Below are positions 4,784 through 13,077 of a DNA stretch of 64,000 nucleotides, piece by piece. Both the position numbers and the translations under genes were made by a program. The first letter of the stretch is position 1, and each line of letters opens with the position of its first letter. Source of the DNA: a virus (lineage: Duplodnaviria > Caudoviricetes); IMG/VR virus record IMGVR_UViG_3300028886_000001, one strand, 5' to 3'. The notes under the pieces are model-generated. The model did no database searches. It was not told where the DNA came from and saw only the letters and a list, made by a program, of their open reading frames with translations.

Positions 4784-6841
4784 TTACTCTATGCTTGATG
4801 ACTTATTAAATTTATCCATATATGCTGTTTCGTATCCTTTTCTATGAGCTTTTATAGAGAATTGGAATTCGAAGTTATCTACTGATGATTCTAATACGAA
4901 ATAATCTTTAGACTTTTCTTTGATTCTATAATCACCGAATGATATCTTATATATGTCTACTATATAATCATTCTCTAAATCTACACTCTCTTTAAACATT
5001 GGATCTATTTCTATTTTTATTTCCTTAGACTTTCCTGTATTACATGATTTTAATTTGTTAGTCCAAGTTAATAAAGACTCTGCATCTTCTGTACTATAGA
5101 ATAATATATCCCCATAAGACTCTGTATGTTGTACACAGTTCTTAGAACCAGTTACAGATAAACATCTAGCAGTTATAGAAGAACCTGTTAAAGTTAGCGA
5201 TGGAGCAGTAGCAGAATCATAATTACCTATAATTATTTCTCCAGGGTTACCAGATCCATGGTATAGTGTACGTATTACTGGTCCTATACCGTCACCATTT
5301 ATTGTTCCAGATAAAGTTATTGACTTAGCATTTATATTAAGATCTAAATTCCTATCACCTATAGTCCAAAAGTTAGGATATCTAGATGCTGTATTACTAC
5401 TATTATAATTATAATGTACATCTATTAACGTATTATTTGTATTTTCTACTCTATTATTAGCATTATCATAAGAAGGAGCTATTAGCTTATATCCATTATC
5501 AACATAGAATGAACCACTCATAGGTTTACCATTAGCATTACCAGATGATTTTATATAAGTATCGCCTATATAACCACCATAGTTATATTGAGTTAATATA
5601 GTTCCACTATTAACTCTTGCTGCTGTACAATCTAATTGAAGTTCTTTGCCTGATGCACCAACATGTAATACTCCAGAACTATATTGTAATAGAGTTCCAG
5701 CTCCATCATTACTACTAGAAGATATATAAGCATCTTCATCTAAAGCAATATAAGAATTAGAATCTATTTTTAAAGCACTTGAAACATTAATTTCTTTTTG
5801 AGTATTACCTAATTGGATATATTTATCTTTTTCTTCTAATAGTATATCATTTAAATTAGAACTCCTAATACCAGCATCCTTAGTTATATATAAAGCACCA
5901 TTAAATGGATTAGCAGCTCCACTATATACTCTATTAGCAGGTATTTTGGCTGTCTTAGATAGATATACATCATCTAAAGTACTATTATAGTTATTAGTAT
6001 TTAATATCTTATATCCATTATACTTTAGATCTCCACTTCCCAATATAGATGTATTTATAGAACTATTACCTAATTCTACAGTACTATTTATAAGAGATAA
6101 TGCCATATAAGTATTATCTCCATCAGCCATGTATAATTTAGATTTCTCCATAACTACATCATTTAATAAATGTAATGGTTTACTATTATTACCTAGATAG
6201 ATGTATTTATCTTTTTCTATTAAGATATCATTATTAGATGATGATTTAATACCAGTATTAGCATTAAAATATATATCTGAAGCTATATTAATCTTACTCT
6301 TATTATCTCCTATAGTTATATTCTTTTGATTATCTCCTGTAATAAGATTATATACCGATGTAGGATTATCTCCTACTACTATATCTCCACCATAAGATAG
6401 CATAACTCTTTGTATTTTAGTATTTCTTATATTATCTTCTGTAAGAAATACAAAATCTTTATTCATCTTAGGATCTTTATAGAATGGAGTAGTACTAGCA
6501 GATAAATATAATTTAGAAGAAGTATCTCCTAAATTTATAGTATTATTAGTAGAATCAGATTGTAATAAGATTAGATTAGTATTATCTGATTTAGCACCGT
6601 ATATAGTATTAATATCTTTATTAGCTAGATATAATTTACCAGTAGATATAGATACATCTCCAGATATAAGACCTCCTGTTTTATCATACTTTGTTTCCTT
6701 TAATTTATCCCAAGAAGTAGTTTGTTCATCTGTTACTAATCTATGATCTTTATCTTGAATAATATTTTCACCCTTAGTTATAGGGTAATAGATCTTATTA
6801 TTAGCTTTATTTCTTAATAAAGTATTTATAGAATTACTCAT
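4784..6841 (-). CDS. Tail fibre/spike protein
   Basis: Start MSNSINT at 6841 behind GGAGGG; G/N/S-rich beta repeats; C-terminal KNCVQHTESYG...IDPMFKESVD...SIKAHRKGYE domain typical of Firmicutes phage tail spikes; shares modules with 16236..17810. Confidence 0.75.
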   Translation of the reverse strand: MSNSINTLLRNKANNKIYYPITKGENIIQDKDHRLVTDEQTTSWDKLKETKYDKTGGLISGDVSISTGKLYLANKDINTIYGAKSDNTNLILLQSDSTNNTINLGDTSSKLYLSASTTPFYKDPKMNKDFVFLTEDNIRNTKIQRVMLSYGGDIVVGDNPTSVYNLITGDNQKNITIGDNKSKINIASDIYFNANTGIKSSSNNDILIEKDKYIYLGNNSKPLHLLNDVVMEKSKLYMADGDNTYMALSLINSTVELGNSSINTSILGSGDLKYNGYKILNTNNYNSTLDDVYLSKTAKIPANRVYSGAANPFNGALYITKDAGIRSSNLNDILLEEKDKYIQLGNTQKEINVSSALKIDSNSYIALDEDAYISSSSNDGAGTLLQYSSGVLHVGASGKELQLDCTAARVNSGTILTQYNYGGYIGDTYIKSSGNANGKPMSGSFYVDNGYKLIAPSYDNANNRVENTNNTLIDVHYNYNSSNTASRYPNFWTIGDRNLDLNINAKSITLSGTINGDGIGPVIRTLYHGSGNPGEIIIGNYDSATAPSLTLTGSSITARCLSVTGSKNCVQHTESYGDILFYSTEDAESLLTWTNKLKSCNTGKSKEIKIEIDPMFKESVDLENDYIVDIYKISFGDYRIKEKSKDYFVLESSVDNFEFQFSIKAHRKGYETAYMDKFNKSSSIE
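5325..5542 (-). repeat. Fibre module B, copy 1 (inverted relative to 16431..16660)
   Basis: GGTAATGCTAATGGTAAACCTATGAGTGG...; first ~105 bp differ from the other copy at 3 positions. Confidence 0.9.
5579..5752 (-). repeat. Fibre module A, copy 1 (inverted relative to 17220..17393)
   Basis: Encodes IALDEDAYIS...DGAGTLLQYSSGVLHVGASGKELQLDCTAARVNSGTILTQYNY; about 90% nucleotide identity by eye. Confidence 0.9.
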
Positions 6842-6867
6842 TATATTCCCTCCTTTTGTATATATAT

Positions 6868-12700: not shown

Positions 12701-13077
12701 GCAAATACGTTTAAACCTGTAGCATTAGATTTAAGTATAAAAAAAGAGTTACCTATCCTCACCAATTGTATAGGTATGCCAGCTTTTATGTCGCCACTTT
12801 TTGCTGCTTTACCATTTATTAAAATACTACTACTACCTAAATTATTTATATTAAGCGTAGGATTATATCCACAGTCTTTATGTGGATTGATTATTATTAT
12901 AAGACCATCTTTGTATTCTGTAATATTAGGTAATGATACTGTATAAGCTAATTCTGAACCAGAAGTTATAGCATATGGGACTCCAGTATCACTTGTGACA
13001 TCTATATTTTCTACTTTTGTATCTATCGATTTTATCTTAGATAAAATTGTACTTACGGCATCTGTTGTGATTTGCAT
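9769..13077 (-). CDS. Kelch-repeat fibre protein with C-terminal anthrax-lethal-factor-like zinc metallopeptidase
   Basis: About 11-12 Kelch blades (YIYIFG/YIMGG...YKYD...); C-terminal HEIGHAID...EYFAQNFAYFF; tail-fibre-type N-terminus. Confidence 0.8.
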   Translation of the reverse strand: MQITTDAVSTILSKIKSIDTKVENIDVTSDTGVPYAITSGSELAYTVSLPNITEYKDGLIIIINPHKDCGYNPTLNINNLGSSSILINGKAAKSGDIKAGIPIQLVRIGNSFFILKSNATGLNVFASNSLPSTLDGVWIKTNSKVDQIVNGVPSRDKYIRIHDCPISYTNGGICNVGDGFILFKNDSDDCITSAYLYNTSSDNYKALTNFPSMATYKRIIYYNGTTYIFGTNDTSTYVYDYKYYNDTYNLKVAFDDIRIDTSSVLCVYNDYIYIFNATSGGKSYRYDVKNESMTKITSAPGGCMYNGAIACNGVIYIVSKSDGSSVNNIYEYDIANNSYTLVKETPICFTGTSIVDGNNNIYLLGSDSLPSCVYKYDIEGNNFCRLKNVPYNFYDGLAVYSGRNIYIFSGPDDSKYAYKLELNSYTLESQLGVPYDMSKGSAAYIDGYMYIMGGSTSANVSKNFYKYDYDNYKYIKLDDLPMHVFRSAVTTIRDCIYMFGSFNSDDGDVAYKYNTSTNKFTKLATIPQQISFVSASAVGSDIYIFGCTDLNSDDNENHVVYKYDTILDSYSKVSNMPFSGTGCATCTYGKYIYIFGSNSGTKNYAYRYNTDKDTYTNIGQIPYNFYFSGVARIHDSIYIVGGKESTNKVCVYDIKDNVFTDISDIDINTYNGAVISDGINIHILGGASNRDYTILQFLYPYKNTLFINDNGQHTNNIKLYNVFNDTMDYRYITDCHYVNNNSMEISSEIYLGNSHNWRLLNNTYGDIVSPSDDSNLTPNVNIVSTRVYALQTTINNTANLYSCNISSIKDSTSRINFSSNLVEIDENNGIEIIASSIEINQDSVITLNIRAFNNNLSMIITPDNNSNTFTGYNEFTYIVRKNGTYKFLLITKDNIVIEKVIKVNNISYSNLRDFYVNNFIRTSDDSSLTDNDKSVIDERKKIISEKLPLKLINYLYTDNYIITFVPSSIKLSTFVKNKVDSSTSITDDMGGITYYARNEIYLTCNSIKPQTTIHEIGHAIDKYYGRYLGGMISERDDYKAIYNAKSDYSTIFSDDTYFLQNITEYFAQNFAYFFTPMSLNPMEMDGPKNKAYFNTLNTNEWS

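Follow-up and report, generated by a model that had tools for sequence, protein, structure and literature searches.

The fibre gene cluster and its genomic setting

Five genes, here termed A to E, form a cluster on the minus strand of the analysed stretch of DNA (64,000 nt in length, hereafter the window), each having a Shine-Dalgarno sequence at its start. In the order of transcription, gene A (nt 9769–13077) codes for a protein of 1102 aa composed of an N-terminal helix (socket), a fibre segment, Kelch propellers and a C-terminal zincin, and is a candidate tip carrying the N-helix only. Gene B (nt 9327–9743) codes for a putative adaptor of 138 aa, with a YPxT anchor, a small beta domain and a C-terminal helix (plug), and gene C (nt 8529–9272) for a putative spacer of 247 aa, having an N-helix, a beta-repeat shaft, a coiled coil and a C-helix. 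These are followed by gene D (nt 6924–8453; 509 aa), a putative tip fibre with an N-helix, a PTR repeat and a variable body, located in a hypervariable slot, and by gene E (nt 4784–6841; 685 aa), a fibre with a YPxT anchor, a variable body and a promoter-like site of its own. Since E carries neither of the two helices, it is placed outside the helix chain.

The cluster is harboured by a complete 213-kb virus record, which belongs with the AR9/PBS1-like jumbo phages: its major capsid protein is related to those of AR9, PBS1 and phiR1-37 (≈21% identity), its polymerase is a divergent family B enzyme, and late promoters of the AACA-N6-TR type were found. This motif, which follows the AR9 late promoter consensus (PMC5449584), occurs in 68 of the 181 upstream regions, against a mean of 15 after shuffling, mostly 27–46 nt before the start; the enrichment points to a non-virion RNA polymerase of the AR9 kind and, possibly, to a uracil-containing DNA. 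The cluster is flanked by the polymerase gene on one side and by a conserved 259-aa gene on the other, and is absent at the corresponding place in distant jumbo relatives retrieved through the polymerase. Close strains come from gut metagenomes, pig among them. Insertions containing an HNH domain interrupt the polymerase gene in several relatives (L238:2137–6570, L264:242–3131), while it is intact in the window. A further ORF among the tail genes (nt 1698–2765) carries a long low-complexity segment rich in His, Cys and Pro.

The Kelch-protease label given to A in the preliminary description was confirmed, as both the Kelch repeats and the zincin domain (HExxH at 1014) were found by domain search. 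A is 98% conserved among strains. The zincin, of the ATLF Pfam family (nt 9799–10182), ends the fibre and is unusual as a phage fibre tip; proteins of the host surface or of mucus may be its substrates. We discarded the idea that the ATLF match marks a toxin, since the zincin fold here closes a phage fibre. Domain search of D retrieved a phage tail repeat (PTR). On the contrary, the carbohydrate-binding module (CBM) attributed to D remained unconfirmed, as no Pfam CBM match was obtained, the PHROG match was weak, and the single-sequence fold was of low confidence and too poor to be used. In C, residues from about 68 to 180 form a beta-repeat shaft common to many longer proteins (1222 protein clusters matched), nearly all of which, among the matches listed, have different N-terminal ends. 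Comparison of the C monomer model (pLDDT 74, pTM 0.31) with the PDB gave no match, and searching IMG/VR directly with C and B gave no relatives. As for E, a 524-aa gene on the plus strand (nt 16236–17810) has modules in common with it (72% over 90 aa) in permuted order; the anchor at the start of this gene is unlike that of E and is found again in the same genome (C1, nt 8983–10791).

Matches to the AR9-type promoter consensus lie at nt 13117, 6879 and 4750 of the window, on the minus strand. Late promoter-like sites precede A (AACA-N6-TA, nt 13106–13117, minus strand) and E, and none was found before B, C and D, so that A to D are probably carried by one transcript. Between C and D, a hairpin of 13 pairs (stem nt 8481–8510, minus strand; z −4.1), which is conserved in the strains and whose U tract on the coding strand is weak, would act as a leaky terminator or a stabiliser. 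Hairpins of this kind are also present after D, E and the polymerase gene; the one after D (nt 6887–6916, minus strand) is terminator-like and is followed by the late promoter-like site at nt 6879. A higher copy number of the spacer had been read from the hairpin between C and D. The stem itself is real, but on a shared A–D transcript it would reduce the level of D with respect to that of A, B and C taken together, and is uninformative on C versus B; it was thus rejected as a sign of raised spacer copy.

Terminal helices and their counterparts in other phages

The sockets occupy residues 1–16 of A (nt 13030–13077), C (nt 9225–9272) and D (nt 8406–8453), and the plugs residues 125–135 of B (nt 9339–9371) and 228–238 of C (nt 8559–8591), all on the minus strand; in both B and C the C-terminal motif lies within about 10 residues of the stop. 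The N-terminal likeness of A, C and D, already pointed out from the bare sequence, was borne out: the three pairs score 30–37 (BLOSUM62) and are all in the top 8 of 19,900 N-terminal pairs of the genome. The similarity of the B and C C-termini, taken as a pair, is equalled by some chance pairs (reached by 8 of the 19,900 pairs). Nevertheless, these two termini rank 2 (B) and 1 (C) of 181 in the genome against a profile built solely from other phages, which upholds the end helix that the two proteins were said to share. The N-helices of the window are weak on the corresponding external profile (3.7, 2.4 and −0.9; two of them rank 5 and 9 of 181, that of D being lower), and searching the genome with a profile of the N alignment gave no match, the window N-helices being highly divergent. 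They show the same register and hydrophobic pattern as the external N-motif. Their place in the family is thus based on the register, on bridging homologues and on the complex model described below. The main bridge is a homologue of C, P0003 (score 14.3), where a canonical N-helix stands on the same shaft; a weaker one is provided by P0198/P0229 (score 6.5), having the body of D in common. On these grounds, we regard the window helices as divergent members, tentatively so for the N-helices, of a widespread ITNxEID/YLDxxGL pair.

P0003 has both helices in canonical form and is followed by another gene starting with an N-helix. For this reason viral contigs were scanned, separately, for a C-type (ITNxEID) and an N-type (YLDxxGL...KIK) pattern, both of which were tested afterwards. 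Among the matches listed, the former lies mostly at C-termini and the latter mostly at N-termini. Unique C-ended genes are followed by an N-started gene in 25 of 45 cases, as compared with 25 of 1370 control junctions of the same loci, and N-started genes are preceded by a C-ended gene in 22 of 46 cases, as compared with 31 of 1477 controls (among the matches listed); these counts were dereplicated by terminal sequence only, so that related phages are still included. When runs of motif genes are considered, with X standing for a gene with both motifs, C-X-N was found 53 times, C-N 15, X-N 12, C-X 10 and N-C once (among the matches listed). The commonest order elsewhere (C-only, both, N-only) is therefore also that of B, C and D, consecutive in transcription order, in agreement with the earlier remark that each C-helix gene is directly followed by an N-helix gene.

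Among the matches listed, C-only genes include six of the Prophage_tail family (Tal-type tail proteins) and two of the Gp37-like kind (Sipho_Gp37), as well as one for a baseplate spike and one for what looks like a major tail protein, and N-only genes bear Gp10_C, fibre-repeat, head-fibre, GDSL and similar tip domains. Judging from this domain content, plugs have been added to core parts of the virion and sockets to tips. Among the motif loci scanned, plug and socket were nowhere seen in a natural fusion. The motif profiles retrieved no PDB chain below E 0.7, and no Pfam family was matched by either motif. A literature search, with subscription papers mostly outside its reach, found no paper on the motifs or on such a joint.

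Two loci are worth noting. A major-tail-protein-like gene (L129:2706–3701) ends in the plug motif, implying a tail tube decorated by fibres. In the cultured Faecalibacterium phage FP_Taranis (L244:7228–11525) there is a look-alike series of tail fibre, spacer and tip, in which the annotated tail fibre and its downstream neighbour have near-identical end helices, and the genes after these start in a helix-like manner, just before the target gene of a DGR.

Predicted joint between consecutive fibre proteins

Plug positions covary with socket positions across paired junctions. In particular, where the last residue of the plug is aromatic, the socket has a tryptophan in 3 of 19 junctions, as compared with 19 of 22 otherwise (35% dereplication, p 7e-6), although the covariation, as well as the separation of joints described below, may be partly confounded by shared ancestry. 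The window pairs follow the same rule, both plugs ending in tryptophan and all three sockets being without it. Within the few single loci holding both plug types, the aromatic swap is inconsistent.

A complex of three D N-termini (residues 1–40) with three C C-termini (residues 206–240), as had been proposed for checking the association, was modelled with a score of 0.81, the best of three controls reaching 0.18; the mark of 0.81 is attained by 58 of 80 solved complexes and by 2 of 110 mismatched pairs, counts which apply only roughly here. Contact agreement among runs was at least 97% and partner pLDDT at least 84. The predicted interface, between residues 1–16 of D (in particular 1–12, 14 and 16) and residues 224–240 of C, is centred on both motifs. 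Since the model was fed with alignments, and cousins of true partners also pass, it does not show specific binding pairs. A pass from sequence memory is unlikely, as there is no like PDB sequence or Pfam family. Of the 12 top covarying pairs, 5 are among the best contacts of the model, an overlap that is not independent because the same alignments stand behind both.

Co-occurrence, gene order, covariation and a complex model with controls thus all favour the plug-and-socket joining of consecutive products that was suggested at the outset. The best reading of the cluster, and in our opinion a probable one, is an ordered fibre of adaptor, spacer and tip joined by a portable helical clip. Each of the two peptides would provide one half of a small connection between fibre trimers, the three C-terminal helices of one trimer being packed onto the three N-terminal ones of the trimer that follows. 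Adaptor B would be fixed to the virion by its YPxT end, spacer C plugged onto B, and the tip (D, a strain variant of it or perhaps A) plugged onto C. The result would be a segmented, ordered fibre, mostly in a 1:1:1 ratio, whose tip genes could be duplicated or swapped as long as the 16-residue socket is kept. Motif positions, gene order, covariation and strain variation were observed and the 3+3 interface is predicted, while we infer the location on the virion, the order and stoichiometry of the segments, and the plug used by A.

Spacer number, probably exchangeable tips and comparison with known fibres

In 18 dereplicated C-X-N cassettes, the first and second joints (joint 1 and joint 2) could be told apart by leave-one-out classification in 17 loci from the plug and in 16 from the socket. 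It follows that the plug and the socket of a spacer tend to differ in class, which speaks against free self-polymerisation, although ancestry could likewise produce this difference. The few longer chains among the matches listed have two different spacer genes each. A further-reaching proposal, which we put forward tentatively and hold to be somewhat doubtful, is that this undescribed 11-plus-15-residue joint, one and the same for many unrelated gut phages, works as a partly orthogonal address code, position-specific variants setting the order of anchor, spacer and tip, and with several tips per plug on one virion.

These data bear directly on the variable-length fibre of the preliminary description, according to which the plug of C would also bind its own socket and give rise to a long polymer capped by the tip. 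Indeed, C bears both halves of the joint, its plug resembles that of B, whose neighbour is C itself, and a hairpin follows the spacer both here and in the P0003 locus; moreover, about 14 gp81 trimers are stacked in the fibre of phage A-1(L) (PMC10966104). We nonetheless consider self-polymerisation unlikely. The variants of joint 1 and joint 2 differ across loci, spacers range from 69 to 866 aa, and the few longer chains listed owe their length to two different spacer genes. Nor does the hairpin help, as any gain over D would be common to A, B and C and would not favour C over B, and in 16 of the 18 cassettes the gap between spacer and tip (≤26 nt) leaves no room for a terminator.

Interchangeable tips, as had been supposed, are supported by the variation among strains. 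Five distinct layouts of the cluster were found in the close strains and the window, where A, B and C are kept at 96–100% identity and C is followed by N-only genes, one to three in number, whose bodies differ (509 aa; 717 and 591; 675, 526 and 819; 792; 754 plus another). These tip genes have identical first residues, with a near-invariant N-helix, and none of them ends in a plug; several sockets behind one plug fit alternative tips. Their first 60 nt are nearly identical, the changes within the first 12 codons, which belong to the predicted interface, are synonymous, and substitutions appear from positions 13–14. A recombination hotspot may contribute to the variation of the tips.

Near-identity over the first 60 nt would also be expected if the helices were mere trimerisation caps or recombination landing sites, and their co-occurrence the outcome of cassette duplication and shuffling. 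Trimeric fibres commonly start with short amphipathic helices. Still, this explanation appears improbable, more so than self-polymerisation, given the strict polarity of C before N, the grafting of the plug on unrelated core tail proteins, the covariation between the two genes, the specific interface that the model gives as opposed to its three controls, and the synonymous nature of the changes in the 12 interface codons. Fibre chaperones encoded beside fibres are common as well, but a transient pairing of the motifs during assembly, or a pairing within one trimer, with proteins that are not serial virion segments, is very improbable, as C-only proteins are often core virion parts, N-only ones are large receptor-type tips, and an elongated shaft lies between the two ends of C.

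The proposed segmented fibre joined by helical clips would follow a building principle that is already known from three systems. The neck fibre of the Anabaena phage A-1(L), gp82-gp81-gp80 (PMC10966104), is likewise encoded by a single operon, whose anchor, extender and tip proteins form trimers that are connected head to tail following the order of their genes. It docks by N-terminal beta-hairpins, as modelled, and has a globular extender in about 14 copies (PMC10966104), whereas the joint of the window is helical, its predicted interface coinciding with the two terminal helix motifs, and the fibre is probably ordered; the evidence, which is indirect, leans against many extender copies per fibre here. 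When scored for both motifs, A-1(L) gp80–82 ranged from −7 to 3 and do not carry them. As in the long tail fibre of T4, gp34-gp35-gp36-gp37 (PMC5537660), separate genes would provide segments in fixed order, the C-terminus of one facing the next. T4 has a monomeric hinge and fixed partners, while here the same two short motifs serve at one joint after another and on many unrelated proteins; a PDB search with the motif profiles gave no sign of homology to the T4 joint modules. In the branched receptor-binding proteins of KP32-like Klebsiella phages, a receptor-binding protein that can be exchanged is attached to another fibre protein through a short conserved peptide at its N-terminus (PMC13352976, PMC6872550), as demonstrated experimentally there and predicted here. 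Their receiver is a folded T4gp10-like branching domain that gives a side branch, in contrast to an 11-residue C-terminal helix and a predicted collinear extension, and a search of B and C for the T4gp10-like branching domain family returned no match.

The joint itself is undescribed in the literature covered, and what surprises is its small size, portability and breadth. If the proposed arrangement is true, the role and assembly order of many "hypothetical" gut-phage genes could be read from their first and last 15 residues, tips could be gained, duplicated and swapped with baseplate and capsid untouched, and the clip would be a very small natural connector between protein trimers.

The start shared by B (YPxT-type anchor, nt 9669–9731, minus strand) and E, reported earlier as a common anchor, is present at the N-terminus of each. 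It is weak as a pair, the similarity being reached by 48 of the 19,900 genome pairs. Of 200 ORFs, exactly 5 show the pattern itself within 35 residues of the start, namely B, E and three paralogous genes (genome C1, nt 1–4728 and 212467–213180). Proteins of large phages and of Bacillota prophages have it at the N-terminus as well. The three paralogues start with an HPxI variant of the anchor; they lie near a probable terminase gene, and at least two have Kelch repeats related to those of A. Tandem arrays of small YPxT-anchored proteins were observed in phages of ≈165–250 kb (L248:2448–5845, L252 and L253), where several of the proteins have a short, hydrophobic strand motif as their end; this may represent another pair of plug and socket.
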